Positions 10,492 through 26,961 of a stretch of DNA of 38,521 nt are shown here, in pieces. The stretch is from assembly GCA_964559995.1 (NCBI GenBank), contig CAZLKK010000001.1, positions 1 to 38,521 of the forward strand, given 5' to 3'. Position 1 is the first letter of the stretch. Each line of letters starts with the position of its first letter. Origin of the DNA: an uncultured Chloroflexaceae bacterium. GTDB lineage: Bacteria; Chloroflexota; Chloroflexia; Chloroflexales; Chloroflexaceae. Both the position numbers and the translations under genes were made by a program. The notes beneath the pieces were generated by a model, which did no database searches, was not told where the DNA came from, and saw nothing but the letters and a program-made list of their open reading frames with translations.

Positions 10492-13400
10492 CTACAAATC
10501 TGCCAGCAAGATGGCGGCTTCGGTCTGTCCGCGGTAATAGCCGGTTTGGTTGCTCAACTGTTGGGCATAGGACGCTTCTGTATGGGCAGTCTCACGATCC
10601 CCTATCGCCATGTAGACATACGCCAACGCAATGCGGATAGCTGCCTCGTGGAGCCGATAACCCCCCGCCATCGCTAGGCTTAGGGCTTCTTCTAGTGAGC
10701 TACGGGCTACCTGAAAGGCGGATATATACTCTTTGGGGGGTTCCGGTTGGGGAGGAGCATTACCCCCCCTTGCCATCCCCGATTGTTCATCATAACGTGC
10801 CTGCCTCCGCTCGGCGGAGGCGGACAACCGCTCCTTTATCTGGTTGACAAACGTGCGCTCAGGACGGAAGGGCAACTGCTCTGAGATGCCATCTATGAGC
10901 TTAATCCACCCGCCACCAGTATTGCCCCGCGTGGTAGGGGCTTGGGCATCCAGCGGCACCCGCAACGAACGTCCGCGAGTACGTGCTCTCGTCCCCACCC
11001 GCGCCACAGTAAATCGCCTAGCAGTCTCCGGGTTGCTCTGTACCCAGAACTTACGCGAGGTTGAGGAGTCCCCGTCTTCTGTTGCCGTGTCCTTATCCCC
11101 ATCGAGGTCTTCATCGTCTAGCCCCGGCTCATCCTCAACCACCGGGGTAACTTTTTCGCTGAGGAGTGTGGCGATTGTCCGTTGTTGGGTATCTGATGGG
11201 GTTTCGCTGTCGTCTTCGCCTACGCTTTGATCATCTGCCAACCCGATGCTGCCTACGCCTCGCGCCGCCCATAGCCCCCGTGCCAACAACGTTTCAATGA
11301 GCACGAGCCGCCGTGGGATGCCCCGCGCTACCTTGATAGCTTCCTGGTAATGCTGATAGGCAGTCTCTTGGTTTCCCTGCTGGCTATCCAGATCAGCCAA
11401 GATACGATAGCAACGGCTGATCTCTTCTTTCCAGTTGTAGTGTTGGCAGAGCTTCAGATTGGCTTCTATTACCTGGCGTGCTGTATCCATACTGCCAGTC
11501 TGATAGAGATGCTCTGCATACCACCCCCCCCGCTGGTTATAGAGCGAGTAGACATCCGGGTTAGCCTCTCGTTCTAGCAGTTCTGCCCAAACAAAGGTAG
11601 AACGAGCCATAACAAAGTGTCCGCACAGGTGGGCAACCCATGCCTGAAGTGACGATGCCAGCATCTCAAGGTAGCGGTTTTGTGCCTGCCGTGCCAGCAT
11701 AAGCGATTGGCGAATGTATGCGCTGCTTTCGGCAAGCATCCCCCGCTCCATAGCCACATACGCAAGGTGGTAAGCGGCGGTATGGGCGGTGTGCCAGTTT
11801 TGCGCTTCAGTTGCAAGCGTGAGACATTGGCGATAACAAATCGCAGCTTTGGGATACTCGCCTAGATAGTAAAAACAACGGGCAGTTTGGTCAAGCAGGT
11901 GGTAGCAGTGGGTTGTATCGTCAAGTAGCGGCGGTTGGGTAATGTCGCCATTTGGGAAAAATTCCAAGAACAGTGTGCAAGCCAGTTCATACGCGCCCAT
12001 TTGGTCAGTCAAGATACTGACCTCTTGTTGTTGACAGAGATAGTCTTGGTATATGTGCCACGCCTCCGCATATGCCCCCGCTTGGCAGGCGTGGTAGCAG
12101 GCTTCCCTAGCAGGCACTAGATCATGGAGCGTGGGGAGCGGTTGATCGCGCTCGACCAGCGAGAGGTAGTACTCTTTGATGGTATGGTGCAAAGCGGGGA
12201 GTTGGGGGTGTATATCCACCAACTGCACAAGGCGGTTTCGAGCGTAGGTATGGATGAGCGGGTGCAAGATGAAATACCCCTCCTCCTCATCGTAGGTAAG
12301 AATACGATAGTTGACCAGTTGCTCAAGCATCTGTTGGAAGGTGTCATCTTCCAACGCGAGCAGCGGGTCAAGCAATATATCGAACAGGCTGCACGCGTCT
12401 TCGGTCTCTGCTGCATTTTCCCCAACCTCTGGCTCTATTGGCTCTGTTGGTTGCTCTATCTCACTGTCTGGCTCATTCCCCCCCCCATCCGTCTGCTGTG
12501 CCATACCCAGCCGTGTGTCCCCGTTTGCATCCTCCCCATTATCGGGGATGCTGATAGCGCGGGTGGTGCTGGTACCGCTGGTGATAATGGTGATAGTCCG
12601 TGCCGCGGGGGGGGATGCTACGGGAGAATCTTCCCCCCCATCCCCTGCCTCATCGTCTACACCAGGGGGAGCAGGTTCTTCGGTTCCCCCTTGCTCTGTA
12701 TGGGAGCGGGGGCTAGGGGGAGCGGGGGCATCTTCCCCCCCATCCCCTGCCTCATCGTCTACACCGGTGGCATCATCATTGATACACAGAACCACAGAGT
12801 CCGGGCAGGAGACCCCAGTCAAGAGTTCATGATAGACCTCGTTATTGTCAGACTCTTTCTGTTTCTGTGTTTCTGCATCTCTGTCAGATGTCTCTTGTTC
12901 GGACTCCGTGCCACTCCGTGTTTCCGTGTCTCCGTGGTGAACTTTGTCCGGTAGACATCCCTTTGAAGAAACATCTTCCCCCCCATCCCCTGTCCCATCG
13001 TCTATTGTGGGGGGAGCAGGTTCGTCATCCCCTGCCCCACGTCCCACGAGGGGAGAAGGGGAGTCGTTAGGGGGAGCGGGGGGGGCAGGATTATCTCGCA
13101 CCGAGATCGCTATACCCGTTGATTTACGGAGGGGAATAGACGATGATCTTGGCTCACGCTTGGCAGTATCTGCAATGTCATTATCAGCAGCAGTATCGGG
13201 GTCATCAGGGATGGTGATTTCTATGCCCATTGGGATGCGGAAGGGGATGTCGTCATCACCATCATCATTGCCCCTACCCCTACTACCACCACGGCTCCCC
13301 CGAACAACAACGCGATTACTTGGAGTACCTTGCCAATCGCTTGCTTCATCTCTGTTATCAGTATCCCCTGCATCCTCGATGCCCTCTGCGTCCTCGATGC

Positions 13401-15102
13401 CCTCTGTGTCCTCGATGCCCTCTGCGTCCTCGATGCCCTCTGCGTCCTCGAAGCCCTCTGCGTCCTCGCTGCTTTCCCCAAAGGTAGGCTCACCTTGCAC
13501 TATCTCCATCCCCATTGCTGGCGATTGTGGGGGGGCAGGATAATTCCCCTCGGCAAGCAGCTGGAGCATACGGTAGCGTGCCAAAAAAGCGTCACCATTG
13601 CCCTGATAGGTCTGCATCAGGTAGCTACTCATCATACAGAGCGTCAGCGGGTGAGCATCACACGCTGCGACAATTTCGTCTAGCGTTTCCGTGCTGCCCT
13701 TTAGCCCTAGCCGTTGGGCAAGCGCATACCCTTCATCAGGCAACAGCGGCGGCAACTGATGCTGCGTGTAGGAGGGATAGTCAAGCAGATCAAAGATAGG
13801 GGTACGACTGATCAGCACACAGAGCGAGCCATGTTTTATACCAGCAAGGTAGGCGAGAAACTCGCGCAAGTTGGGGCTAGTCAGCATCCCATATTGCTCA
13901 CTATCCTGATGCAACAGCGTTTCTATGCCGTCTAGGATGAAGAGCGATGGACGGCTCGTGACCATTGCGCCGAGGGTCTGCACCCGCATACTCGTTGACG
14001 GCAGCAAGTGGGGGTCTATGCGTGTGCCGCTCAGGTGGGTGAGGGCAGCCAACAAAAACTCATCCACACTCCCCCGCTCCTGAAAATTCCACCAAAACGC
14101 GCTTTCTGGTTGGCGTATCGTCTTATCTGACCACACCTTGCGGAGCCAACGGCGCACCAGACTACTTTTGCCCTGTCCTGCTGCGCCTACGACTCCTACC
14201 ACCTGACAATGGGGATTGCTCAACGCTTCGCTCAAGTGTTGAACCATTGGTTCTTGCCCCACCCAGCGGGTTACAAGCGGCGGTGCATCATACAGCATCT
14301 TACCCGCCCGCGGTATCGCCATCGGATGGGTTGTTGCCCCATCACTGCGTGGGTGATAGCCGGTGCGCTTTCGCATTGGCATATCGTACACCGACACCCC
14401 AAAGGGAGCTTTGCTCAAGATACGGCTACTCACTGCCCAAGCCTTTGGAGTATCCGTTTTGGCTACAACCGGTTGGGATGTGTTTCCAAAGGGGGAGAAG
14501 CTCATCGGAGCGGTAGTTGTGGGGGGGGGAGCAGGAGCAACGATACCAACAACCAAATTGCGCTCAATATCCAAAATAGCCGACCCTGCCAAGTGGTCTA
14601 TTGGCTGCGAGGGACTCAACTTGATACTACCGGGGGGGGCAGCAGGTCCTGCCATACCCGGTAGGGATTGGATCGTCCCTTCAACAAGGACCGGCTTGGG
14701 TTGATCTGCCGAGAAGCCATAGCAACGGAAGGGATGATTGAGCGAACGCTCTGGTGTGCCAAGCACCGCGATCTGCTCTGGGGCAAGCGGTACTTGCCCA
14801 TCCGTCAAGCGCAACAGCACAACAGGCTCCCCATTCGGAGCCATGCTATGGAGTGCGGCACGGGAGGAGTTGGGCAAATCGCTGCCTATTTGGGGAAAGA
14901 CCACAACCACCTCTTGTTCTGGCAGGGAGGTTGTGGGATTCGCTGGCAGGGTAATACCAGCGGCTGCGACAACAGACGGGGCAGTTGCTATGAGACCATC
15001 TCGTGAGACAACAATACCTGCGCCGACAAGTTCACCGGTATGCGGATGGCGGAGTTGGACAGTGAAGTCGCGCAGGTTTTGTAAGCGAATATTGGGATTC
15101 AC
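10492..15102 (-). CDS. STAND NTPase: degenerate trypsin-like domain, NB-ARC-type P-loop ATPase, ~360-aa acidic low-complexity insert, winged helix, and a TPR array carrying a second insert
   Basis: 1536 aa; GTG start 25 nt after the ArsA-like stop.
- N-terminus: GAGIVVSRDGLIATAPSVV ... EPVVLLRL ... CYGF ... AGSAILDIERNLVVGIV follows the Trypsin_2 pattern, but without the usual His and Asp.
- NTPase: Walker A VVGAAGQGKSSL, Walker B SLFILDGIETLL, then LISRTP and LPPLLPDEGYALAQ.
- Winged helix: LVNYRILTYDEEEGYFILHPLIHTYARNRL.
- C-terminal half: TPR-like helical repeats such as CFYYLGEYPKAAICYRQCL and AYHLAYVAMERGMLAESSAYIRQSL. Confidence 0.75.
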   Translation of the reverse strand: MNPNIRLQNLRDFTVQLRHPHTGELVGAGIVVSRDGLIATAPSVVAAAGITLPANPTTSLPEQEVVVVFPQIGSDLPNSSRAALHSMAPNGEPVVLLRLTDGQVPLAPEQIAVLGTPERSLNHPFRCYGFSADQPKPVLVEGTIQSLPGMAGPAAPPGSIKLSPSQPIDHLAGSAILDIERNLVVGIVAPAPPPTTTAPMSFSPFGNTSQPVVAKTDTPKAWAVSSRILSKAPFGVSVYDMPMRKRTGYHPRSDGATTHPMAIPRAGKMLYDAPPLVTRWVGQEPMVQHLSEALSNPHCQVVGVVGAAGQGKSSLVRRWLRKVWSDKTIRQPESAFWWNFQERGSVDEFLLAALTHLSGTRIDPHLLPSTSMRVQTLGAMVTSRPSLFILDGIETLLHQDSEQYGMLTSPNLREFLAYLAGIKHGSLCVLISRTPIFDLLDYPSYTQHQLPPLLPDEGYALAQRLGLKGSTETLDEIVAACDAHPLTLCMMSSYLMQTYQGNGDAFLARYRMLQLLAEGNYPAPPQSPAMGMEIVQGEPTFGESSEDAEGFEDAEGIEDAEGIEDTEGIEDAEGIEDAGDTDNRDEASDWQGTPSNRVVVRGSRGGSRGRGNDDGDDDIPFRIPMGIEITIPDDPDTAADNDIADTAKREPRSSSIPLRKSTGIAISVRDNPAPPAPPNDSPSPLVGRGAGDDEPAPPTIDDGTGDGGEDVSSKGCLPDKVHHGDTETRSGTESEQETSDRDAETQKQKESDNNEVYHELLTGVSCPDSVVLCINDDATGVDDEAGDGGEDAPAPPSPRSHTEQGGTEEPAPPGVDDEAGDGGEDSPVASPPAARTITIITSGTSTTRAISIPDNGEDANGDTRLGMAQQTDGGGNEPDSEIEQPTEPIEPEVGENAAETEDACSLFDILLDPLLALEDDTFQQMLEQLVNYRILTYDEEEGYFILHPLIHTYARNRLVQLVDIHPQLPALHHTIKEYYLSLVERDQPLPTLHDLVPAREACYHACQAGAYAEAWHIYQDYLCQQQEVSILTDQMGAYELACTLFLEFFPNGDITQPPLLDDTTHCYHLLDQTARCFYYLGEYPKAAICYRQCLTLATEAQNWHTAHTAAYHLAYVAMERGMLAESSAYIRQSLMLARQAQNRYLEMLASSLQAWVAHLCGHFVMARSTFVWAELLEREANPDVYSLYNQRGGWYAEHLYQTGSMDTARQVIEANLKLCQHYNWKEEISRCYRILADLDSQQGNQETAYQHYQEAIKVARGIPRRLVLIETLLARGLWAARGVGSIGLADDQSVGEDDSETPSDTQQRTIATLLSEKVTPVVEDEPGLDDEDLDGDKDTATEDGDSSTSRKFWVQSNPETARRFTVARVGTRARTRGRSLRVPLDAQAPTTRGNTGGGWIKLIDGISEQLPFRPERTFVNQIKERLSASAERRQARYDEQSGMARGGNAPPQPEPPKEYISAFQVARSSLEEALSLAMAGGYRLHEAAIRIALAYVYMAIGDRETAHTEASYAQQLSNQTGYYRGQTEAAILLADL
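12628..13004 (-). repeat. In-frame direct repeats inside the STAND low-complexity insert
   Basis: Perfect 36-nt repeat ATCTTCCCCCCCATCCCCTGCCTCATCGTCTACACC at 12628..12663 and 12730..12765, with a diverged third copy at 12973..13004. On the minus strand these encode ..GVDDEAGDGGED.. and ..TIDDGTGDGGED... Confidence 0.85.
13374..13468 (-). repeat. 18-nt tandem repeat, about 5.5 units, in frame (hexapeptide ED(A/T)EG(I/F))
   Basis: The plus-strand unit CCTCGATGCCCTCTGCGT repeats from 13374 with single-base variants. It translates on the minus strand to EDAEGFEDAEGIEDAEGIEDTEGIEDAEGIED. Confidence 0.9.
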
Positions 15103-15127: not shown

Positions 15128-16291
15128 TCAGCGCGTAAAGACCACATGCAGTTCTTCGTTTTCAAAGAACGCATCACGGGCATGGAGCCGTGCCAGCGAT
15201 TGTGGCAGCGCGACCCGGTGCCGATGCCAGCCAACAGAGATTAACAATTCATCAGCATTTTGGGCAAGGTGTATCTGGTCTTCAGAGACAAAGGGCAATG
15301 GCACGATAAGATCGTACCCTTGCGCGGTGCGCTCCACCCGTTGGGTTGGACCGGTGTAGAGAAACGAAGCCGGGTCTACATCTTCACCATAGAGGAGATT
15401 ACCCATCTCTTCAAGCATTTCTAACCCGACAATTTCGCGGGAAAAGTGACCCGATTTGAGTAAGGGCAAGGGGGAAAACATCTGCTCCACCTGGGGATAG
15501 TACCCCTGCTGCATCTCCTGCCAACTGGAGAAATGTCCATCTACATTGTCTGGCAGGATGCGATTGACGACCACGGCATCTACCGCATAGCCAAACAGCG
15601 ACAGATAGGTGAGGCTACGTTGGGCTTCCCGTATGACCATTTTTTCTAAGTTCATCACAATGCGGGCAGTGGTGGTTTGCTGGTCGGTGAGGATACTCCG
15701 TACCGCTACCAGCGAATCAATGGCATCTTGGGCAGAGACGAGTACATCATCCCCCGCGATGGGAATATCACTCACGCGCTTTGCCATAGGACGCACCACC
15801 TTGAGCACCCCCCGCACGATGGGGAAGAGACGCGAAATCCACCAACGCATAATTTCTGGCAACGCCAACAACCGCAGCGTTTCGCCGGTGGGGGCAGCAT
15901 CCACAACCAAGACATCAAATATGCCTTCGTCATAGTGGCGTTTTATCTGTAGCAGGCTAAACAGTTCTTCTGTGCCAGGGATAACCGAAAGTTCCCCCTG
16001 GGCAATAGACTCGACCCCTTGCCATGCCAAAAGGTCAGAAAGGTAGCGTTGTACATCGCCCCAGTTCATTTCTAGTTCGTGAAGGGCGTTTATTTCCTGC
16101 GCCCAGAGGTTGTCTGCAACCTGCATGGGTTCAGCCAACAGTTCAATACCAAAAGAATCTCCAAGCGAGTGGGCGGAGTCCGTGCTAAGGACAACCGTTT
16201 TGTGACCAAGTTTTGCACAGCGTAGCGCAGTCGAAGCGGCAACACTGGTCTTTCCTACCCCACCTTTGCCGGTGTAGAATAATATTCGCAT
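15128..16291 (-). CDS. ArsA/GET3/TRC40-family P-loop ATPase with an HSP20-like C-terminal domain
   Basis: 387 aa, ATG start. Motifs: MRILFYTGKGGVGKTSVAAS (deviant Walker A), STDSAHSLGDSF, VVDAAPTGETLRLL (DTAPTGHT-type switch motif with Glu in place of His). The C-terminal ~100 aa (YDLIVPLPFVSEDQIHLAQNADELLISVGWHRHRVALP) resembles the HSP20-like tail of bacterial and plastid Get3/ArsA homologs. Confidence 0.8.
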   Translation of the reverse strand: MRILFYTGKGGVGKTSVAASTALRCAKLGHKTVVLSTDSAHSLGDSFGIELLAEPMQVADNLWAQEINALHELEMNWGDVQRYLSDLLAWQGVESIAQGELSVIPGTEELFSLLQIKRHYDEGIFDVLVVDAAPTGETLRLLALPEIMRWWISRLFPIVRGVLKVVRPMAKRVSDIPIAGDDVLVSAQDAIDSLVAVRSILTDQQTTTARIVMNLEKMVIREAQRSLTYLSLFGYAVDAVVVNRILPDNVDGHFSSWQEMQQGYYPQVEQMFSPLPLLKSGHFSREIVGLEMLEEMGNLLYGEDVDPASFLYTGPTQRVERTAQGYDLIVPLPFVSEDQIHLAQNADELLISVGWHRHRVALPQSLARLHARDAFFENEELHVVFTR

Positions 16292-16427: not shown

Positions 16428-17264
16428 CTACTCCCCCTCCAGCAACGGCGGCGGGGCAGGCAACACTGGCACATCTGCCGTTCCCGTTATCTGTGCTGGT
16501 GCAGGCGGTGTGGGGAGCTCTGGCGGCTCTGGCGGCTCTGGTGGCTCTGGTGGCTCTACCGTGTGCCACCACAAACGGACGATCTCCTCGTTATGCCCAT
16601 ACCATACCCGCGTATCAGGCAGCGGGTCGTGGCGTAGCCCCTCTAGTATCACATGCTCTGCCCCATCCAGCAGACCGCACGACAACGGCACAACCCCATC
16701 CCCCCACTGCTCCCCACTAGCACTCAACATCGCGTAGCTCTCCCACGCGCTCCGCTCTGCCCGTTCGCCATCTGGTATCCCCTGTATCCCTTGAGAAATA
16801 ACCGTCACATAGCGAATAAACCGCCAGTAGGCACCGGGGTAGTGCGTTTGGGCAAAGACAATCTGGTTGAGACCACCAAAACGTCCCTGTTTGGTTGTCG
16901 TATGGGGGGTACCAAGCGTAATGAGCGTTGTCACACGCTGGAAACCGTGAAAGACCAACTGCTCGTTGCCATAGGGTTGGTCGCCCATGTAGATACGCGC
17001 CAAAATCCCCCCGGCACTATGCGCTACCACCATAAGCTGTTGGGCGCGGGTGCGGCGGAGCGTGTCATTGACAGCAATATGCAGTTTCTTGAGCAAGGGG
17101 GTATAGTCATCACTCACGATAACCCCCAACCAGTCGAGGGTCACGAGGCGGGTAACGTATACGCGGCGTTGGGTGATGGACTCAAGGATATGGCGGAGCG
17201 GTTCGTAGGCTTGCCAACTTGCCCCAAACCCACCAATGATGAGAATTGGGAGATTCTCTGGCAT
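16428..17264 (-). CDS. Lipase/PGAP1-like alpha/beta hydrolase with a Pro-Glu repeat C-terminal tail
   Basis: 278 aa, ATG start. Motifs: ILIIGGFGASW, nucleophile elbow VVAHSAGGILA (A-x-S-x-G as in Bacillus-type lipases), LITLGTPH. The C-terminal tail reads VEPPEPPEPPEPPELPTPPAPAQ. Confidence 0.7.
   Translation of the reverse strand: MPENLPILIIGGFGASWQAYEPLRHILESITQRRVYVTRLVTLDWLGVIVSDDYTPLLKKLHIAVNDTLRRTRAQQLMVVAHSAGGILARIYMGDQPYGNEQLVFHGFQRVTTLITLGTPHTTTKQGRFGGLNQIVFAQTHYPGAYWRFIRYVTVISQGIQGIPDGERAERSAWESYAMLSASGEQWGDGVVPLSCGLLDGAEHVILEGLRHDPLPDTRVWYGHNEEIVRLWWHTVEPPEPPEPPEPPELPTPPAPAQITGTADVPVLPAPPPLLEGE
16518..16553 (-). repeat. 9-nt tandem repeat x4 encoding PEP repeats
   Basis: The plus strand reads CTCTGGCGG CTCTGGCGG CTCTGGTGG CTCTGGTGG. 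It is in frame in the hydrolase C-terminus. Confidence 0.85.
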
Positions 17265-17372: not shown

Positions 17373-17747
17373 CTAGGAGGAAGCCTGGGTCGTAGCGATA
17401 AGCGATTCTTGTTGCAAAAAGGCGAGGGCTTCCTCTTCACTGCCAAACATATGCACCCCCGCAAAGAGTTTCACCAGGGAAGAAAACAACAAGAGGTACG
17501 GCTGATTGACCACGAAAAAGTACATCCCAACATGGGGATGGTGCTTCACCTTCTCAATAATATTGCGAGCCACCGGGCAAGACGTATTCACCCCACGAGC
17601 ATTGATAAGAATGTTCGTAGGTTGTGGGCAATGATCTAGCATTTCCCACGCTTCTACATAGTAATTCTCGGCTGTCTCCCTATCTACATGCCCATTCATC
17701 TCCAATCGGAGCAGATTTGGTGCGAGTAATGACAGGCTATAAGACAT
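17373..17747 (-). CDS. Small hypothetical protein (124 aa), possibly with a STAS/SpoIIAA-like fold
   Basis: I place the start at ATG 17747 (MSYSLSLLAPNLLRLEMNGH...), with GAAGG about 9 nt upstream. The longer track ORF (to 17921) would overlap the upstream radical SAM gene. The functional guess rests only on size and an alternating strand/helix-like pattern. Confidence 0.45.
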   Translation of the reverse strand: MSYSLSLLAPNLLRLEMNGHVDRETAENYYVEAWEMLDHCPQPTNILINARGVNTSCPVARNIIEKVKHHPHVGMYFFVVNQPYLLLFSSLVKLFAGVHMFGSEEEALAFLQQESLIATTQASS

Positions 17748-17809
17748 GATGGCTACCTTCTTTCTAACTTTTTCTACAGCGAGTATACAACGGCGTATCC
17801 TTCTGCCTA

Positions 17810-19189
17810 TTACAGCAGCATTTCTGGGGTAAGACGTTGCGTGAAATTGTGCATTGCCAGATTTGCTGCCCAGATCCAATCGAGTTTGTGTCCTTGCAAT
17901 CGATGACGTATCCCTCTCCATGAGTAAACTTCACGTTGTATTTTGATAAAGTTTTTCAAAAACTCATGTTGTCCCATCTTTGCCGGGTGATACATATAAT
18001 GAAAGGTATCGTACTTGTCCCAGTCAAAGTGCAGGATGCGATCTTTGATTTCATCAAACCACGCGGTACCGGGAAACGGGGTTGCTATGGTAAAAACGGG
18101 AAACTCTACCCGATTCCGCATGATAAAATCATATGTTGTTTGGAAACCCTCTGTTGTATCTGTGTCAAAGCCAAAAATAAAGTAGCCCTGTAAAGCCAGG
18201 TTATGTTTCTTTGTGTTTTGTACTACGATGTCATACCGTTCAATACGGTTTGACCCCTTGCCAACGGATTTTATTGTTTCAGGATTGAGTGATTCAAAGC
18301 CTACGTTGAGTAATTCACACCCAGAGGCTTTGGCAAGTTCGGGGATATGCGGTTTTTCAAGAAAGTTCATGGAGATATTCGAGTTCCAGCGAATCCCTTT
18401 CCCGACCATGCTATTGAGCAATTCCTCAATAAAATCAGGTCGGAAGCAGATGTTATCATCCATGAAGGAAATATTGATGTCTTTTCGTTTGAGCCTATCT
18501 TGATGGTATTCTATCTCTTCAATAACGTGGTCTACCGTGCGGGTGCGATAGGTCTTGCCATACACCTTGTAGGCACAGCAAAAGCTACAGCTAATGGGAC
18601 ACCCTTTAGTCGCCAGCAGCGGTATGCGGGTGCTATATTTTCTCGCATGCTTGGAGCGCATGGCAATATTGAAATCGGCATGCTCCATGCTCGCCATCTC
18701 TTTGAAGTCTGAGGCACGATAGAAAGGCTTGAGCTTGTCCTGTTGCACATCTTGCAGCAACTCTTCCCACACCGACTCTACCTCGCTAGAGACGATAGAG
18801 GTACTATGCTCACGGGCTTCTTCGGAGAGCATCGTTGGATGAACCCCCCCAAGAATAACCTGCTTGCCCTGGGCAAGGGCTTTGTCGGCTATCTCATAGG
18901 CTTTTTTGGCATTGAGGGTGCGCGAGGTAATGGCGACAACATCGTACTCAGTGAGATCATCTGGCACCTTGTCGCCAATGCGCTCATCCACAAAGTCAAG
19001 GTCAAAGTACTTTTGCACCAGGGTAGCAACCATCAGCAGGTTGAGCGGGATGCTCACCTTGCCAGAGTCTACCATCAGCGGGGTAGCACTTTTTGGCTGT
19101 ACAATCAACCATTTTTTGCGCCGACCATTGGTAGATGGGTTGTAGCGAGTTATTTTGGTTCCGTTTGTTGCTGGGTTCTGGTGTGCCAT
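17810..19189 (-). CDS. B12-binding-domain radical SAM enzyme (class B; BchE/BchQ/BchR-type family), copy 2
   Basis: 459 aa from ATG 19189, 10 nt after the upstream stop; the track start 19294 overlaps the upstream gene. The N-terminal half resembles a B12-binding domain (YDVVAITSRTLNAKKAYEIADKALAQGKQVILGGVHPT). The CX3CX2C cluster is KGCPISCSFC. Paralogous to 19200..20726. Confidence 0.8.
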   Translation of the reverse strand: MAHQNPATNGTKITRYNPSTNGRRKKWLIVQPKSATPLMVDSGKVSIPLNLLMVATLVQKYFDLDFVDERIGDKVPDDLTEYDVVAITSRTLNAKKAYEIADKALAQGKQVILGGVHPTMLSEEAREHSTSIVSSEVESVWEELLQDVQQDKLKPFYRASDFKEMASMEHADFNIAMRSKHARKYSTRIPLLATKGCPISCSFCCAYKVYGKTYRTRTVDHVIEEIEYHQDRLKRKDINISFMDDNICFRPDFIEELLNSMVGKGIRWNSNISMNFLEKPHIPELAKASGCELLNVGFESLNPETIKSVGKGSNRIERYDIVVQNTKKHNLALQGYFIFGFDTDTTEGFQTTYDFIMRNRVEFPVFTIATPFPGTAWFDEIKDRILHFDWDKYDTFHYMYHPAKMGQHEFLKNFIKIQREVYSWRGIRHRLQGHKLDWIWAANLAMHNFTQRLTPEMLL

Positions 19190-19199
19190 AATGGTTGTA

Positions 19200-20726
19200 T
19201 TATCCCTTGACCACTTCTGTTGCTGCCATCTGTGGTTCCGCTTTGGTATCTGCGAGAGTCTGTTCAACCGGGCGGCGGCGACCTGCCCGTACATTCTTCA
19301 GTTGGTCTGCTAGATTACGCTTGAAATAGATGCTAGTCACAAGGTTAATCAGCTTGTTGGAATTGTTCATGACCCTGGTAACAATCGTCTTCCAGGAGTA
19401 CATCGCCAAGTAGTGCTCCAAGAACTTGATTTGATATTCTAGCGGGTCAAACCGCTCACTCTTGACGACAAGATTAGCGGCAGTATACTTGTCCCAATCT
19501 TCGTCAACGACCAAGCCCTTTTCCTTATATTCCCAATACATCGCCGTACCGGGGTAGGGAGTGATGAGCGAATAGATGGGCATGACAATGTGGTTCTTGC
19601 GGACAAATTCTTCTACCGCGTCCATATCTGCGAAGGAGTCTACATCTGGGTTGGTCAGGAAGTTGCCCTGCACACAGAGTCCCGCTTCGCGGCACTGGCG
19701 GATGATGCGAATGAATTTCTCCACGCTGTTCTGGCGGCTCTTGTTGTACAACTTGAGCGTTTCATCATTGATAGACTCAAACCCGACCAGCACCATAGCA
19801 CAGCCGGCATCTACCAACAGTCTGACTGTCTTGGGGTCTTCTAGGAAGTTGAGACTGATAAAGCTACTAAAGCGAATATTGCACCCCTTGATAGCCTCAA
19901 GAATATCCCAGAGTTTCTTCTTATTAACCCCCAGGTTCTCGTCAGTAAACATAAACCAGGGTTTATCGCCATAGCGCGTCTTCTTGAAGAAGACCTGCTT
20001 TGCCTGCTCTATCTGCTGGACAATTGCTTCTGGGGTCTGGATACGGTAGAGCTTGCCCGTGAAATTTGGCGTAACGCAAAAGGAGCAGGTGTAGGGGCAG
20101 CCCCGCGAAATGTAGATAGGGATAGACTTTCGGGCATCGACCTTTTCGCGCTTGCTTGCCTTGAAAATGCGCTCATAGTCAATCATTGGGGCTTCAGTCA
20201 CAGGCGGGAAATCGCCAGAGAAGTAGTAGGGTAGGATATGCTCCTTCCCCTGGGCGGCATGTTCTATGATGGTAGTCCACATCCCATCTGCCTCGCCAAT
20301 GATCACCGAGTCGCAGTGCGGGGATGCTTCGTCATAGTTGAAGGAGACGTGTACGCCACCTATGACAACGGGAGTTCCCCGTTTCTTGAACTCATCGGCT
20401 ATCTCGTAGGCACGGGTCGCGTTGAGGGTGCGGGTGGTAATACCAACAAGATCATAATCGCCATCATAGGGTATTTCATCACCAAAGAGATCATCAGCAA
20501 TTTCTAGCTGATGCTGCGGTGGGGTAATGCTTGCCAACACCCCAATTGCCATCGTAAATAGGGGCTTTTGCCCACTGTCTTCCTCCTGTTTGCCTTTGGG
20601 CATCACCAGCAGAATCTTGAGCGGACGGACGCTTTCCGGCGGCTGTGCGGGTCCCGTTGCCCGAGTAATTGGTATGGGTGGGACGGTTAGTAATGATTCT
20701 TGATGACTATGACTAGGAGAACTCAT
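19200..20726 (-). CDS. B12-binding-domain radical SAM enzyme (class B; BchE/BchQ/BchR-type family), copy 1
   Basis: 508 aa, ATG start with GAAGGG upstream. Motifs: YDLVGITTRTLNATRAYEIADEFKKRGTPVVIGGVHVS (B12-binding-like), RGCPYTCSFC (CX3CX2C), LVGFESINDETL. Confidence 0.8.
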   Translation of the reverse strand: MSSPSHSHQESLLTVPPIPITRATGPAQPPESVRPLKILLVMPKGKQEEDSGQKPLFTMAIGVLASITPPQHQLEIADDLFGDEIPYDGDYDLVGITTRTLNATRAYEIADEFKKRGTPVVIGGVHVSFNYDEASPHCDSVIIGEADGMWTTIIEHAAQGKEHILPYYFSGDFPPVTEAPMIDYERIFKASKREKVDARKSIPIYISRGCPYTCSFCVTPNFTGKLYRIQTPEAIVQQIEQAKQVFFKKTRYGDKPWFMFTDENLGVNKKKLWDILEAIKGCNIRFSSFISLNFLEDPKTVRLLVDAGCAMVLVGFESINDETLKLYNKSRQNSVEKFIRIIRQCREAGLCVQGNFLTNPDVDSFADMDAVEEFVRKNHIVMPIYSLITPYPGTAMYWEYKEKGLVVDEDWDKYTAANLVVKSERFDPLEYQIKFLEHYLAMYSWKTIVTRVMNNSNKLINLVTSIYFKRNLADQLKNVRAGRRRPVEQTLADTKAEPQMAATEVVKG

Positions 20727-20777
20727 TGTTACCCTTCAATGTTTTGATAGTTTATCGTGATGAAAAACACGAAGCTG

Positions 20778-20786
20778 ATTATACCA
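20778..20786 (-). promoter_or_regulatory. Putative extended -10 promoter box TGGTATAAT ahead of the radical SAM pair
   Basis: The plus strand reads ATTATACCA, so the minus strand reads TGGTATAAT. It lies 52 nt upstream of ATG 20726, within the 125-nt gap after the hydrolase gene. Confidence 0.45.
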
Positions 20787-20851
20787 CGCTCAATACAAAC
20801 TGTCTAGCTAAGGCTACGTCAAAGTCGCAAAATCTTTTGCATTGGGCAACT

Positions 20852-21730
20852 TTAGCCATGATCCTGTCGATCTATCCAAGCAGCGAGTACCTGGCAAAAC
20901 TCCTCTGGCACCTCGTCAAAGGGGCAATGTCCCGCATCAGCCAGCATATGGATGTCGGCTTGTGGGAGTATGCGCTCCTTGAGGATATGGGCATGGGCGA
21001 AGGGGAGCGATTGATCTTCCTCACCCCAGATAATCAGGGTAGGCGTTTGGATAGCCCCTGCTGGTACGTCAAGGATGAGCCGAGCAAAAGCCCGTGATGC
21101 TGCCAAGTAGGATGCCACCCCACCGGGTTGGCTAAGGGGCTTACTGAAGGCTTCAATGAGAGCAGGTGTGACCATCTCCTTGCGGTGGTAGGCGGCGAGC
21201 AAACTCTGGCGCACCGTCTCCTTGCCGCTGAGGATGCCACCCATCATCTCGCCAAGCAGCGGCGCACGGATAGCCCCAACGAGGATACGCTCAATGAGCG
21301 ATGATGGCTCGCTGGATTCTGTCAAGCCGGTGCTATCTACCAACACCAACCCCCGCAAGAACTGCGGGTAGTTGTAGGCTAACTGGGTAGCAACAACGCC
21401 GCCCATGGAGTGACCCACCACAATAGCGGGACCGGGGACGACCTTACTGATCAGGTCAGCTACTTGGTCTGCCCAAAATTCCTTTGATGGAGCTACTTGG
21501 AGTCGAGAGGAATATCCAAAGCCAAAGAGATCAAGCGCGTAGACGGTATAGTGTTGCGCTAACGGACGCATCACCCGCCACCAGTGCTCAATAAGTCCCC
21601 CGTAGCCATGAATGAGTACCACAGGGATTCCCTGGTGGGGTACCGATTCCCAGTAACGAGTAAAGCCGTGGTTGCCTTCTAGCCAGTGTTCATAGATTGC
21701 ATGCGGTACTACGTCTGTTGGTGCCGTCAT
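20852..21730 (-). CDS. Alpha/beta-fold hydrolase (MhpC/BioH-like esterase type)
   Basis: 292 aa. Motifs: VVLIHGYGG, LDLFGFGYS, nucleophile elbow VGHSMGG, C-terminal DAGHCPFDE (catalytic His region). Confidence 0.8.
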   Translation of the reverse strand: MTAPTDVVPHAIYEHWLEGNHGFTRYWESVPHQGIPVVLIHGYGGLIEHWWRVMRPLAQHYTVYALDLFGFGYSSRLQVAPSKEFWADQVADLISKVVPGPAIVVGHSMGGVVATQLAYNYPQFLRGLVLVDSTGLTESSEPSSLIERILVGAIRAPLLGEMMGGILSGKETVRQSLLAAYHRKEMVTPALIEAFSKPLSQPGGVASYLAASRAFARLILDVPAGAIQTPTLIIWGEEDQSLPFAHAHILKERILPQADIHMLADAGHCPFDEVPEEFCQVLAAWIDRQDHG

Positions 21731-21802
21731 AATGCTGAGGGGTAAACCTCATGTCCTTACGTTCATACGGGGGTATGCCCCCATATGGACAACTGAGATG
21801 AC

Positions 21803-21852
21803 CGTTGGTCTTTCCCTTGCTGTCTGCGAACGAGTAGCGAGAAAGACCAACG
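21803..21852 (-). terminator. 12-bp perfect inverted repeat downstream of the CsmN-like ORF; a possible terminator, attenuator or RNA stability stem
   Basis: CGTTGGTCTTTC (21803..21814) pairs with GAAAGACCAACG (21841..21852) across a 26-nt loop. It begins 42 nt after stop 21894 on the minus strand. No U-run follows. Confidence 0.3.
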
Positions 21853-21893
21853 ACAGCATTGCGATATACGTCCTGCGCTTGTAGCGTTGCTGC

Positions 21894-22304
21894 TTACTTT
21901 TTCTTTTCTACCCACTCATCAACTTTGCCCCCAGAAGCGGGGGCATCTTTGGCACCACCGGATACCGCGTTGCCTACTTCTTGGGCAGATTTTGCCATAC
22001 GATCTGTGAAATCACGGACGCGATCCCCGACTTCCTCAAAGCGGGGCAGGGAAATCTCACCAGAGCCGCTAAAAGCCTGGTCTACAACCCCCTGTGCCGT
22101 GCGGGAAATCTCACGGGGGACATCCATAATGGCTGTGGTGGCATTGCAAATGGTCTGGCGTACTTGCTGGTTGGTCTCTGTGGGCAACAACCCTAGAGGC
22201 AGGGAAACAATATTCAACCCGCCACGAACAACCCCATCAACGACACCAAGCATCATATCCAATGGATTTGGTGTGGTGTTCTCTTGCGTTTTCTGTTCTG
22301 ACAT
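21894..22304 (-). CDS. Small soluble/amphipathic protein (136 aa), candidate chlorosome envelope protein of the CsmM/CsmN type
   Basis: ATG start with GAGGA 9 nt upstream. It shares NPL..ML..V and (V/I)V(S/T)LPL(G/A)(L/I)LP(T/P)E..(Q/K)QV..TI with the 105-aa ORF at 22623..22940. Its position immediately after the chlorophyll synthase and bchU-like genes matches what I recall of Chloroflexus csmM/csmN. No alignment was run. Confidence 0.45.
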   Translation of the reverse strand: MSEQKTQENTTPNPLDMMLGVVDGVVRGGLNIVSLPLGLLPTETNQQVRQTICNATTAIMDVPREISRTAQGVVDQAFSGSGEISLPRFEEVGDRVRDFTDRMAKSAQEVGNAVSGGAKDAPASGGKVDEWVEKKK

Positions 22305-22407
22305 TGCTACATTCCTCTTTCTTGTCTGGTATTTTTCGCTAGATTCTTACATCTTCAGTACGTTAGGTTTTACCCCTACCGAACTCACCCGATGGAGAAG
22401 CATGGCT

Positions 22408-22566
22408 TTAGCTATCTTGCTTCTTTTGCGGCTGATTAGCCCAATCTTCTACCGCTTTAGTGATAACATTTGCCCACTGTGCCGGGAAACTTACGACACT
22501 TTCCAGCATCGATGCCAACGGGTTTGTCGTTGGTGCTTGGGTTTCCTGCTTTTGCTCTTCTGCCAT
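22408..22566 (-). CDS. Unlisted 52-aa ORF, third paralog of the CsmM/CsmN-like pair (lacks the central segment)
   Basis: Hand-translated codon by codon as MAEEQKQETQAPTTNPLASMLESVVSFPAQWANVITKAVEDWANQPQKKQDS, ending at a TAA stop. An in-frame TAA lies upstream at 22603..22605. The C-terminal 28 aa nearly match the C-terminus of 22623..22940 (AVVSFPGDWANVVTKAVEDWANQPVNKQQD). At the DNA level 22430..22498 matches 22645..22713 at 57 of 69 positions (hand count). The RBS is weak (AGGT 7 nt upstream). Confidence 0.45.
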   Translation of the reverse strand: MAEEQKQETQAPTTNPLASMLESVVSFPAQWANVITKAVEDWANQPQKKQDS

Positions 22567-22622
22567 AACGCAACCTGTATCTTTCCAGGCAGCAATGCTG
22601 CCTTACTGGAACACCCTGACGA

Positions 22623-22940
22623 CTAATCCTGCTGTTTGTTGACGGGCTGATTTGCCCAATCTTCTACCGCTTTGGTGACGACATTTGCCCAATCCCCAGG
22701 AAAGCTGACGACAGCCTTTACTGTGTCTTGGATGGTGTCTTGTACCTGCTTGCGTGATTCCGGCGGGAGAATAGCGAGGGGGAGGGTCACAACCCCCAAT
22801 GCCATACGAACGACAGTATTCCCACCTTCTAAGACGGAGGAGAGGACATTCTTTGAGCTTTCCGGGGTACGCACATTGCGTACTCGAACCTCTCCCTCAA
22901 CGTCAGCCGGTTTTTTCTGTTCTGTTTTTTCTGCTGCCAT
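22623..22940 (-). CDS. Small soluble/amphipathic protein (105 aa), candidate chlorosome envelope protein of the CsmM/CsmN type
   Basis: ATG start with AGGA 7 nt upstream. Paralogous to 21894..22304 and 22408..22566 (see those entries). No transmembrane segment is evident. Confidence 0.45.
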   Translation of the reverse strand: MAAEKTEQKKPADVEGEVRVRNVRTPESSKNVLSSVLEGGNTVVRMALGVVTLPLAILPPESRKQVQDTIQDTVKAVVSFPGDWANVVTKAVEDWANQPVNKQQD

Positions 22941-22984
22941 AGAAATTCCTGCTACCTTTCTGTTTACTAGGTTCCTAAAGGCGA

Positions 22985-23914
22985 CTAATCGAAATATCCA
23001 CCTGCGACAAATGCCGAGACAAATTGTATGGCAATGATAAACAGGTTACTTGCTAACATATAGCGCATAAAGTTCTTGTGTGATGGGTTTTTATACAGGC
23101 TCATTTGGCTAAAGAAGGGGATAAGCATAGCTGCTAAGACCAACCCTGCTACCCACAAGTACCCCCACACGAGCGCGAGGATCATCAGTGCCAACTCTGA
23201 GCCGTTGATAAAACCAAATGCTACGAGCATGGCGCGTTGCTCGCCAAGCATCACGGGGAGCGATTTTAACCCATGCTTGCGATCCCCTTCAACACTTTTG
23301 ATGTCGTTGAGGAAAATCAACCCTGTAGCGATACCGCCATTGATGACCGCCATAATTGCGCTGCGCCAGGTCAGTTCAGCAAAAATGATATGCCCTGCCC
23401 ACCAGCTCATACAGGCATAGCCAAGCCCCACCGCGGGAGCACTGAGCCAGACGTTCTTCTTGAGCTTGATAGGGGGGACACTGTAGATAGCCCCAAGCAA
23501 CAAGCCGGCGATGATCAGTATGGTAATCCAGGGGCTTGCATAGACCAACGAAACGAGCATCGTCACAACAGCCAAGATAATCCAGTTGAGCCGGGCTTCG
23601 GTGAGGGTAACATCACCGGCTGGGATGGGACGCGAGGGGTCATTGATAGCATCAAGTTCACGGTCATAGTAGTCATTGATGCTTTGGCTAAAGCCAGTGG
23701 CTAATGGACCCATCATGATAGCCCCCAAGATCACCAAGAGGAGACTTACAGGGTCCGTTGGATTGAAACTTGATCCTGCTGCTATGGCACCACAAACACA
23801 CATCAAGGCTGGCGAAATCCACGTTATGGGGTCGGTCAGCCTGATGTGAGCGTTAATGCGTCTGCTCAGTGTTACACTGCTTTCAGATGTCGAAACCACG
23901 GTTGCTCCTGGCAA
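22985..23914 (-). CDS. bchK: (Bacterio)chlorophyll synthase, UbiA prenyltransferase family; context favours BChl c synthase BchK over BchG
   Basis: The motifs NDYYDRELDAINDPSRPIPAG, YSVPPIKLKKNVW and NDIKSVEGDRKHGLKSLPV match the ChlG/BchG/BchK signature blocks, and multiple TM helices are present. The track start is TTG 23914. GTG 23899, with GGAG 5 nt upstream, is an alternative start. The K-versus-G assignment rests on neighbourhood only. Confidence 0.7.
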   Translation of the reverse strand: MPGATVVSTSESSVTLSRRINAHIRLTDPITWISPALMCVCGAIAAGSSFNPTDPVSLLLVILGAIMMGPLATGFSQSINDYYDRELDAINDPSRPIPAGDVTLTEARLNWIILAVVTMLVSLVYASPWITILIIAGLLLGAIYSVPPIKLKKNVWLSAPAVGLGYACMSWWAGHIIFAELTWRSAIMAVINGGIATGLIFLNDIKSVEGDRKHGLKSLPVMLGEQRAMLVAFGFINGSELALMILALVWGYLWVAGLVLAAMLIPFFSQMSLYKNPSHKNFMRYMLASNLFIIAIQFVSAFVAGGYFD

Positions 23915-23954
23915 AAATCAATCTATCCATAGGTGCTCGTTACCGTCCTTATCG

Positions 23955-24977
23955 TTAGGAACGGGGTTTTACTGCCTGATACAAAACGTGTTCGTAGGCT
24001 TCGTGCATTGTTACCTTTTCAAAGCCAACACGTTGCAGCACATCTGGATAGATGGTATGACTCTTAAAATCCAATACCGAGAAGTTTAGCCCAATAGCGC
24101 AAATATAATGGGTGAGATAGTCGTAGTTGGGGGCTTCCGGGTCGCTAATGATAAGGTCTAGGATGAGGATACGCCCACCGGGTTCTAGGGCTTCAAAGGC
24201 TTTCTGACACATCATGGTACAGAATTGTTCATTCATTGGGTAGAGAATACGCCCAAACATCAGCGCATCACACGCAGGGTAAGGTTCTTTGTACATATCC
24301 ATAGCAATGGGGGTGATGCGGTCTGCCAAGCCTTTGGATGCTGCGTTTTCTCGGACGAGTTCGATGGCACTTGGTAGGTTGATGAGCGTGACGTTGAGGT
24401 CTGGGTGTTGCTGGCACATTGCTGCAGCAATATCCCCTATACCGCCGCCTACGTCTACCATGTGGTTGACCCCGCCGAGCTCTGCATGGTCTTGCATCAG
24501 CTTGATGGGATAGTACACATTGCTCCGATGGATCGTCTCGTAATAGAGGCTCTCTTCGGGAGTCGTTGGAGGATACGGTACAACGCTGGTCAGGTCTACC
24601 TTCCCCTTGACGGCATCAGCAAGCTGCATAAAGAAGCGTTCTGACAGGTCTGCCATATAAGCAATATGGGGGGTCATCGTGAGATTTTGGGTTTCTTCCG
24701 ACTCTACGAAAAACCGGCGAGAAAACTCGGTAAGCTCCCATGAGCCGTTTTCCTCTTGAACTAGCCCTAGCTGTTGAAGCGTGATCAAGAACCGCTCAAG
24801 CCGTGCAGGGACCCCTGCTATTGCCTGTGCAAGCTCATCGAGCGTATACGCTTTCCCGTCCATTACTTTGAAAATTCCAAGATCATAGGCGGCTTTCATG
24901 CAGCTAAATTCAACCGCACTTTTGAATACCATATCATAGGCACGATTTGTTGCCTGCAACAGGTCTTTATCGTTCAT
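23955..24977 (-). CDS. bchU: Class I SAM-dependent O-methyltransferase of the CrtF/BchU family; context favours bacteriochlorophyllide C-20 methyltransferase
   Basis: 340 aa, ATG start with GGGGA upstream. It has an N-terminal dimerisation/winged-helix-like region and the SAM motif I HMVDVGGGIGDIAAAM. It lies directly upstream of the chlorophyll synthase gene, with a 40-nt gap. Confidence 0.6.
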   Translation of the reverse strand: MNDKDLLQATNRAYDMVFKSAVEFSCMKAAYDLGIFKVMDGKAYTLDELAQAIAGVPARLERFLITLQQLGLVQEENGSWELTEFSRRFFVESEETQNLTMTPHIAYMADLSERFFMQLADAVKGKVDLTSVVPYPPTTPEESLYYETIHRSNVYYPIKLMQDHAELGGVNHMVDVGGGIGDIAAAMCQQHPDLNVTLINLPSAIELVRENAASKGLADRITPIAMDMYKEPYPACDALMFGRILYPMNEQFCTMMCQKAFEALEPGGRILILDLIISDPEAPNYDYLTHYICAIGLNFSVLDFKSHTIYPDVLQRVGFEKVTMHEAYEHVLYQAVKPRS

Positions 24978-25050
24978 GTGTCCCCAATCTACGTTTCCAA
25001 AAAGTTGTTACTACGAGAAGTGTCTTTCATCTTAATTTTGTGATGACCTT

Positions 25051-25078
25051 ATTATATTACAAATAGTGAATTATTCAA
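25051..25078 (-). promoter_or_regulatory. Putative sigma-70 type promoter for the bchU-led gene array
   Basis: The minus strand reads TTGAAT (25078..25073), a 16-nt spacer, then TATAAT (25056..25051). It sits in an AT-rich stretch about 75 nt upstream of ATG 24977. Confidence 0.5.
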
Positions 25079-25278
25079 GTGTGACGGATTCCGTGTTAGG
25101 GCAACGTAACGAGCGGATGTCTGAGAGTGGGGGCATTGTTCGCCTTTGACACACCCCTGGGGTCTAACGAAAGTGCTAGACGGGGCAACTTGTGCTACCA
25201 TGCGTGAACACAACCCGTACACTATGGTGAAATGGGTAGGATTAGGATCGTGAGGGACAATTAAGGACAATAAGGACC

Positions 25279-26949: not shown

Positions 26950-26961
26950 CAGCAAGATGCA

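Follow-up and report, generated by a model that had tools for sequence, protein, structure and literature searches.

A probable late bacteriochlorophyll c and chlorosome envelope gene cluster with conserved accessory genes in an uncultured Chloroflexaceae bacterium

We analysed a 38,521-nucleotide (nt) stretch of DNA (contig CAZLKK010000001.1 of assembly GCA_964559995.1; herein the window) from an uncultured Chloroflexaceae bacterium. Between positions 17373 and 24977 the list of open reading frames (ORFs) places nine genes on the minus strand, with intergenic gaps of 10 to 163 nt: bchU, bchK, three small csm-type ORFs, a gene for an alpha/beta hydrolase, bchQ, bchR, and a gene for a 124-residue STAS-fold protein. 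This block is very probably a late bacteriochlorophyll (BChl) c biosynthesis and chlorosome envelope cluster of a mat-dwelling, chlorosome-bearing member of the Chloroflexales. A preliminary description, made from the sequence without database searches, had reported an array of eight co-directional ORFs with short gaps; all of the ORFs it listed are present, but they number nine, and the co-directional run has three further genes (PGAP1-like, ArsA/HSP20, and STAND NTPase) that take it to position 10492. The longest ORFs of the second radical S-adenosylmethionine (SAM) gene (494 residues) and of the last gene in the array (182 residues) run into their neighbors; homolog alignments and the gene calls of near-identical contigs favor starts at 19189 and 17747, giving a BchR of 459 residues and the 124-residue STAS protein.

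With a BchU alignment as the query, a scan of genomes yielded 38 Chloroflexales loci, against which all window proteins were compared using tblastn. The first gene of the array (23955..24977, minus strand) encodes a protein of 340 residues with the Pfam Methyltransf_2 and O-methyltransferase (O-MT) Dimerisation domains; it scores 465.4 bits against the NCBIfam equivalog TIGR02716 (cut-off 276.1) and is 57 to 61% identical to BchU from Chloroflexus, Oscillochloris, Chloroploca, and Viridilinea. We assign it as bchU, encoding the bacteriochlorophyllide (BChlide) d C-20 methyltransferase. The second gene (22985..23914, minus strand; ∼305 to 309 residues, the start codon being uncertain between TTG and a nearby GTG) encodes a protein of the UbiA fold (PF01040, 133 bits) that matches the (bacterio)chlorophyll synthase model TIGR01476 at 321 bits (cut-off 212) and is 56 to 62% identical to the product of the gene immediately after bchU in 36 Chloroflexales loci. 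It misses the cut-off of PRK12392, a BchK model trained on Chlorobi (250.8 versus 494); because the orthologs from Chloroflexus islandicus (253.3) and Oscillochloris (226.1) fall equally short, this model excludes Chloroflexales BchK in general and not the window protein in particular. By identity and position we assign the gene as the Chloroflexales ortholog of bchK, the BChl c synthase gene, which in C. aurantiacus is Caur_0138 (Tang 2011, PMC3150298).

Two of the three small ORFs that follow have counterparts at the same position in other Chloroflexales. The first (22623..22940, minus strand; 105 residues) matches no Pfam or NCBIfam model and is 36 to 49% identical to the ORF directly following bchK in 36 loci (tblastn, E < 1e-4); the other (21894..22304, minus strand; 136 residues) is 32 to 47% identical to the second ORF after bchK in Chloroflexales loci at the same threshold, and the two are paralogous (37% identity over 54 residues). 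In C. aurantiacus these positions are held by csmM and csmN, Caur_0139 and Caur_0140 (Tang 2011, PMC3150298); the csm names rest on that work, as the Chloroflexus ORFs are called “hypothetical protein” throughout in the databases. Between the two lies a 52-residue ORF (22408..22566, minus strand), which in part duplicates the C-terminal half of the 105-residue protein, 22 of 30 residues (73%) being identical to residues 74 through 103. It is 98% conserved in a 96 to 97% identical relative (L001), lies inside an RNA contig (see below), and was seen only in the window, the near-identical contig L003, and the relative L001/L008. The earlier identification of the small ORFs as CsmM/CsmN-like is thus borne out, and the array is best described as carrying two full csmM/csmN-type genes and one truncated duplicate, with predicted envelope proteins as products.

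The two class-B radical SAM proteins share an architecture of B12-binding and Radical_SAM domains (Pfam). The first (19200..20726, minus strand; 508 residues; cluster motif CPYTCSFC) shares 59 to 66% identity with what the Joint Genome Institute (JGI) annotates as BChl C8 methyltransferase in Chloroflexales and Chlorobi. The second (17810..19189, minus strand; 459 residues), which starts 10 nt past the stop codon of the first, shares 58 to 65% identity with the proteins annotated by JGI as BChl C12 methyltransferase in Chlorobi and Oscillochloris, including one (P0311) at 60% on a 2,154,946-bp Chlorobaculum contig. As each is 58 to 66% identical to its own ortholog group, against only 30% between the pair, the assignment is unambiguous: they are predicted to be the already known methyltransferases BchQ, acting at C-8(2) of BChlide d, and BchR, acting at C-12(1), whose functions are known from genetic work in Chlorobaculum tepidum (PMC7242693). 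Since both genes are present, the organism is predicted to make C-8/C-12-methylated BChl c homologs, as green sulfur bacteria and Oscillochloris do and Chloroflexus does not.

All array proteins are 100% identical to those of L003, a 37.5-kb contig of JGI metagenome 3300040801, and a metagenome-assembled genome (MAG) labeled “uncultured Chloroflexaceae bacterium” (L001/L008) has the same gene order with 93 to 98% protein identity and is the closest genome. Because the BchU of the window is only 57 to 61% identical to that of named genera, the lineage is a deep one among chlorosome-bearing Chloroflexales. The order bchU-bchK followed by two Csm-type ORFs is conserved in 36 of the 38 loci and matches Caur_0137-0140 (PMC3150298), so that the first half of the array is indeed the known synteny it had been taken for. 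More broadly, the near-universal order is two ArsA-like genes, a distant hydrolase gene, one or two PGAP1-like genes, bchU, bchK, csm, and csm. One locus reads bchU-bchK-csm-csm-bchQ-bchR-hydrolase (L041) and another bchU-bchK-csm-csm-...-hydrolase-bchQ-bchR-hydrolase-STAS-ArsA (L050). On contigs reached via BchQ, BchR, and hydrolase homologs (L049-L052) the hydrolase gene, bchQ/bchR, and a CsmP-like gene occur together, and the tail in L046-L048 is exactly that of the window, bchR-STAS-PGAP1-ArsA/HSP20-STAND NTPase. The hydrolase and STAS genes are therefore conserved neighbors in relatives and not peculiar to the window.

Some of these loci have features of their own. L046-L048 carry bchK without an adjacent bchU, have two BchR-like paralogs (67 to 69% and 78 to 79% identical to the window BchR) in place of BchQ and BchR, and contain, between their two csm genes, an additional ORF (249 to 267 residues in L046 and L048, 102 residues in L047); these lineages may make a different set of pigment homologs. 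Beside the CsmP-like (Polyketide_cyc2) gene in the bchQ/bchR neighborhood, L049 (6319-7296) and L052 (163-1116) have an epimerase-fold gene with a match to NAD_binding_4, a domain typical of fatty acyl reductases. A similar epimerase-fold gene stands by the CsmP-like gene in L051 (11-964), where NAD_binding_4 is not among the listed matches. The genes with this match hint at a supply of fatty alcohols for BChl c tails or wax esters.

Mat samples comprising three metatranscriptome runs and one DNA run contain 60 to 77% of the 31-mers of the block. Each metatranscriptome yields one RNA contig over the first part of the array (21557-25026, 21676-25022, and 21919-25026; depth 14 to 17), and bchU, bchK, and all three csm genes lie within a single RNA contig. 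These contigs stop at 25022-25026, which is 25 to 29 nt downstream of the −10 hexamer of a sigma-70-type promoter, TTGAAT-16-TATAAT (25051..25078, minus strand; 10 of 12 consensus positions). No RNA was seen over 25269-25600 in the three metatranscriptomes, though the mat DNA run covers that stretch. The preliminary description had pointed to this site upstream of bchU; as 15 matches of such quality occur in the region against 10 expected from shuffled sequences, the motif by itself proves little, and it is the RNA contigs, with their span, their ends, and the RNA-free stretch, that back the promoter and the co-transcription of the first five genes. A Shine-Dalgarno-like GGGGA lies 5 nt ahead of the bchU ATG.

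Beyond the third csm gene the RNA contigs are of lower depth and fragmentary, with the exception of the STAS gene. The hydrolase gene, bchQ, and bchR are represented by short contigs (depth 2 to 6), the 3′ end of bchR and the STAS gene by a contig at 17151-18226 (depth 11 to 12), and the ArsA/HSP20 gene at depth 7 to 10. The PGAP1-like gene has no RNA contig over 16605-16965 in the three metatranscriptomes, and every other gene is covered. The drop in depth, from 14 to 17 upstream to 2 to 6 downstream, falls across the 163-nt spacer after the third csm gene (21731..21893, minus strand), which is predicted to be strongly structured (minimum free energy −60.3 kcal/mol; z = −4.83 relative to shuffled sequences). 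A terminator was considered here and ruled out, as the two strong hairpins lack a U tract and two of the three RNA contigs read through. The structured RNA may instead be an attenuator, a processing site, or a stabilizer; were it to attenuate transcription past the third csm gene, the genes downstream would depend on read-through, on internal promoters, or on both. The best promoter consensus match of the region, TAGACA-17-TG-TATAAT (20778..20806, minus strand; 11 of 12 positions and an extended −10 TG), falls in the spacer that separates the hydrolase gene from bchQ. One RNA contig (20497-20796) crosses this promoter-like site, which makes it no more than a candidate.

The hydrolase gene (20852..21730, minus strand) encodes an alpha/beta-fold protein of 292 residues (Pfam Abhydrolase_1/6) whose GHSMGG nucleophile elbow and His motif near the C terminus are those expected of an active serine hydrolase. 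It falls under the cut-off of every NCBIfam equivalog. BchO, a component of purple-bacterial photosynthesis clusters, was considered and rejected, because the score of 63.7 bits against TIGR03056 is far below the cut-off of 172.55. Its relatives in the Protein Data Bank (PDB) are generic esterases, BioH, and meta-cleavage hydrolases. The listed JGI homologs are all named “pimeloyl-ACP methyl ester carboxylesterase”, while JGI gives homologs of BchQ and BchR pathway names; judged from these names, orthology to C. tepidum BciC, the chlorophyllide a C-13(2) demethoxycarbonylase (KEGG Orthology K21058), is disfavored. Orthologs at 48 to 57% identity adjoin csm genes or bchQ/bchR in many Chloroflexales lineages, and in Oscillochloris-type genomes the ortholog (48 to 52%) lies ∼2 kb past the csm pair.

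The last gene of the array (17373..17747, minus strand) had been called STAS-like, and fold modeling supports the call. AlphaFold2 gave a poor model from the single sequence (predicted local distance difference test [pLDDT] 56.5), which was superseded by a model built with the family alignment (pLDDT 83.7; predicted template modeling [TM] score 0.76). Foldseek matches this model to SpoIIAA, DUF3478, and STAS domains, including 1thn_B, 1h4z, 2q3l, and 4xs5, at TM scores of 0.6 to 0.7 and a probability of 1.0. We are confident in the predicted STAS fold. Among 1.84 billion cluster representatives, searched exhaustively with HMMER, only 33 relatives were identified, a small family apparently restricted to the Chloroflexales. 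Every named member comes from chlorosome-bearing Chloroflexales (C. aurantiacus, C. aggregans, C. islandicus, Oscillochloris trichoides, Ca. O. fontis, and Chloroflexaceae MAGs) and carries the NCBI name “STAS/SEC14 domain-containing protein”. The family has conserved motifs of its own, LDxCPxPT and HHPH(L/V)G. In most relatives (170 to 290 residues) the STAS domain is followed by a Pro-rich linker and then by a conserved helix motif at the C terminus; the Chloroflexus copies, like that of the window, consist of the domain alone. Similarity to PF11964 (SpoIIAA-like, DUF3478) is distant at best: the window protein scores 23.1 bits, under the gathering threshold of 25, and 17 of 31 family members match weakly.

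A hidden Markov model of the family places the STAS gene directly after bchR or one gene off in L046, L047, L048, L050, and L051; in L049 it lies ∼0.7 kb after bchQ. A metagenome scan for a more distant subfamily (using alignment subset A3) gave 24 loci with no bchQ or bchR within 7 kb, which rejects a universal linkage of the STAS gene to bchR. In 12 of these 24 (Chloroflexus-type) the STAS gene lies ∼140 nt upstream of a gene for a 1269-residue BchH. In two others (L058 and L060) BchH is encoded ∼6 kb away on the opposite strand, and in L049 and L051 the STAS gene stands between bchQ/bchR and bchH. The family thus tracks both bchR and bchH. None of the papers searched links STAS domains to chlorosomes or mentions this family.

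Downstream of the STAS gene, and on the same strand, the PGAP1-like gene (16428..17264; 278 residues) encodes a lipase/esterase with an AHSAGG motif and a Pfam PGAP1 score of 26.4 bits; it had no match among PDB sequences. Nearly every Chloroflexales locus has one or two homologs (31 to 39% identity) immediately upstream of bchU. Closer ones (61 to 66%) follow the STAS gene in L046-L048, and in L049 the distance downstream from that gene is 6.6 kb. The following gene (15128..16291, minus strand; 387 residues) encodes an ArsA/Get3-type ATPase with a C-terminal HSP20-like domain (Pfam ArsA_ATPase 301 bits, ArsA_HSP20 72 bits). Where a locus extends far enough, ArsA homologs are nearly always found within 7 kb on the upstream side of bchU, and in L046-L048 and L050 copies 72 to 83% identical are placed downstream as in the window. 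None of the papers searched connects Get3/ArsA with chlorosomes; that the ATPase inserts or chaperones envelope proteins is conceivable. The run ends with a STAND NTPase gene (10492..15102, minus strand; 1536 residues) whose product has a trypsin-like N terminus, a NACHT/NB-ARC NTPase domain, and tetratricopeptide repeats. Within it an 18-bp tandem repeat (5.8 copies; 13368-13472) encodes acidic EDAEGI repeats, and homologs follow the ArsA/HSP20 gene in L046-L048.

Other genes flank this run. A NACHT-HEAT gene on the plus strand (25279-28128) is split by an in-frame TAG at 26947-26949 (...TKLT*QQ...); L003 and L001 read ...TKWTEQQ... and encode an intact protein of 949 residues, a difference of two substitutions within 8 nt, and the TAG reflects either a genuine nonsense variant or a fault in the assembly. 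A hybrid sensor kinase of 1883 residues (31638-37289, plus strand) combines GAF, multiple PAS, HisKA/HATPase, two receiver, and Hpt domains, and a receiver-PAS protein is encoded at 7358-8614 (minus strand). Each could act as a light or redox regulator; no evidence ties either to the array.

The block has a G+C content of 49.8%, and its flanks 54.1% and 52.7%. At third codon positions (GC3) the values are 47 to 60% inside and 56 to 63% outside, with overlapping ranges, and 1-kb windows reach 43 to 47% solely in the bchR/STAS part. The contrast of 43 to 52% against 55 to 65% given in the preliminary description was thus overstated, and the anomaly is minor.

Several other explanations were weighed against this evidence. 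That the two radical SAM enzymes carry out an undescribed pigment-tailoring step new to Chloroflexota, as had been suggested for the second half of the array, would fit the failure of both proteins to reach the cut-off of any NCBIfam equivalog model and the lack of these genes in Chloroflexus, the textbook phototroph of the phylum; it is nevertheless highly improbable, as the two fall cleanly into two ortholog groups, with 58 to 66% identity over at least 90% of their length to annotated BchQ or BchR from Chlorobi, Oscillochloris, and Viridilinea. Moreover, bchQ and bchR have been published from the mesophilic Chloroflexales Viridilinea and Oscillochloris, and reported absent from Chloroflexus (PMC6346205). 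What stands of the proposed undescribed extension is its remainder, the hydrolase and the STAS ORF, which have no described role. A recently transferred genomic island might account for a block G+C ∼4 points below the flanks (lower still over bchR and the STAS gene) and for BchQ and BchR being nearly as similar to Chlorobi as to Chloroflexales proteins. We reject this reading, the G+C difference being too small, and regard it as very unlikely: GC3 overlaps that of the flanks, no mobile-element genes or repeats were found bounding the block, many Chloroflexales share the gene order, and the flanking ArsA and STAND NTPase genes are likewise conserved neighbors. Equally doubtful is that the STAS protein acts as an anti-sigma-factor antagonist regulating the cluster by partner switching. 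SpoIIAA and RsbV-type antagonists are its top structural matches, but sequence identity to them is 9 to 19%, neither a SpoIIAB/RsbW-type kinase gene nor a PP2C phosphatase gene lies beside the STAS gene in the window or in L046-L051, and the position equivalent to the phosphoserine of SpoIIAA varies across the family alignment.

A further possibility, compatible with the BChl c cluster as the best explanation of the remaining genes, is an undescribed module that matures chlorosomes or processes the pigment tail, made up of the hydrolase, the STAS protein, the PGAP1-like lipase, and the ArsA/HSP20 ATPase. Hydrolase orthologs stand beside bchQ/bchR or csm genes in the window, L041, L049-L052, and ∼12 Oscillochloris-type loci; bchU is flanked by PGAP1-like and ArsA-like genes in nearly all Chloroflexales loci; the STAS family is seemingly limited to chlorosome-bearing Chloroflexales, adjoins bchR or bchH, and in most members ends in the conserved helix motif after the Pro-rich linker; and the RNA depth of the STAS gene is closer to that of the csm genes than to that of bchQ and bchR. 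This evidence is one of gene neighborhood, however, and the pathway to BChl c is regarded as complete without such steps. Set beside the displaced hydrolase ortholog of Chloroflexus, a STAS subfamily with unrelated neighbors, and a PGAP1-like gene lacking an RNA contig, it leaves the module somewhat unlikely. A more specific version, in which the STAS family is an undescribed BChl c accessory factor analogous in role to GUN4, tethered by its helix in most lineages and marking a maturation module with the hydrolase, PGAP1-like, and ArsA/HSP20 genes, is slightly less likely again.

We favor the interpretation as a late BChl c and chlorosome envelope cluster. By orthology, BchQ and BchR would methylate C-8(2) and C-12(1) of the 3-vinyl-BChlide d intermediate, BchU would methylate C-20, BchK would esterify the product, and the CsmM/CsmN-type proteins would coat the chlorosome. 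That the hydrolase works as an esterase, with the ester tail of the pigment or the lipids and wax esters of the chlorosome as its substrate, is a guess of low confidence. The STAS protein could assist the tetrapyrrole enzymes BchR/BchQ and BchH as a non-enzymatic partner, serving substrate hand-over or flux control, a role that we put forward tentatively from its gene neighborhood and think possible without expecting it.

A number of observations weigh against parts of this interpretation. The linkage of the STAS and hydrolase genes to the pathway is frequent, not universal: the Chloroflexus hydrolase ortholog lies elsewhere in the genome, unlinked to pigment genes, and in the six-locus L057 group (including L058 and L060) the immediate neighbors of the STAS gene are unrelated. 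The window copy of the STAS protein is itself without the Pro-rich linker and C-terminal helix of most relatives. As to expression, the RNA contigs are unstranded and assembler-made, their depth is a rough guide, and DNA carry-over is possible; they end 14 to 22 nt downstream of the expected transcription start, so that the promoter is supported and not mapped.

The cluster is expressed yet largely ordinary, and its novelty shrinks to two conserved, uncharacterized accessory genes, those for the hydrolase and the STAS protein. It documents an expressed BChl c/chlorosome cluster, with the predicted C-8/C-12-methylated pigments, in a deep Chloroflexales mat lineage. Comparison of ∼50 loci further indicates that the bchU-bchK-csm neighborhood regularly holds the hydrolase, PGAP1-like lipases, ArsA/Get3-like ATPases with HSP20, and the STAS protein. 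These accessory genes are candidates for the attachment of non-isoprenoid alcohol tails, envelope assembly, and the split of flux between BChl a and BChl c in Chloroflexales.

Four known systems offer comparisons. The STAS family shares its fold with SpoIIAA, STAS domains, and PF11964, and differs in lacking a partner kinase or phosphatase, in its own motifs, in the usual linker and helix, and in having bchR or bchH as neighbors. BchQ and BchR resemble their C. tepidum counterparts in identity (∼60%), in the B12-binding and radical SAM architecture, and in the CxxxCxxC motif. Their genes, which we take to be dispersed in C. tepidum, are adjacent in the window, with a 10-nt gap, and are joined to the bchU/bchK/csm array. 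Relative to C. aurantiacus Caur_0137-0142, bchU-bchK-csmM-csmN(-csmP) (PMC3150298), the order is the same through the two small paralogous envelope genes, and PGAP1-like lipases and ArsA-like ATPases are again in the neighborhood, although downstream in the window and upstream in Chloroflexus. Unlike C. aurantiacus, the window carries a truncated third paralog of the csm genes, together with the hydrolase gene, bchQ, bchR, and the STAS gene as additions; the NDH-2-like and CsmP-like genes found after csmM/csmN in Chloroflexus are missing from it. With the mesophilic Chloroflexales (MAGs L041 and L050, and Oscillochloris) it shares a hydrolase gene near csm or bchQ/bchR, while the position of this gene relative to bchQ/bchR differs; in O. 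trichoides, unlike the window, bchR lies in another part of the genome. From this comparison of loci, the arrangement in the window is a permutation of a supercluster widespread in the Chloroflexales.

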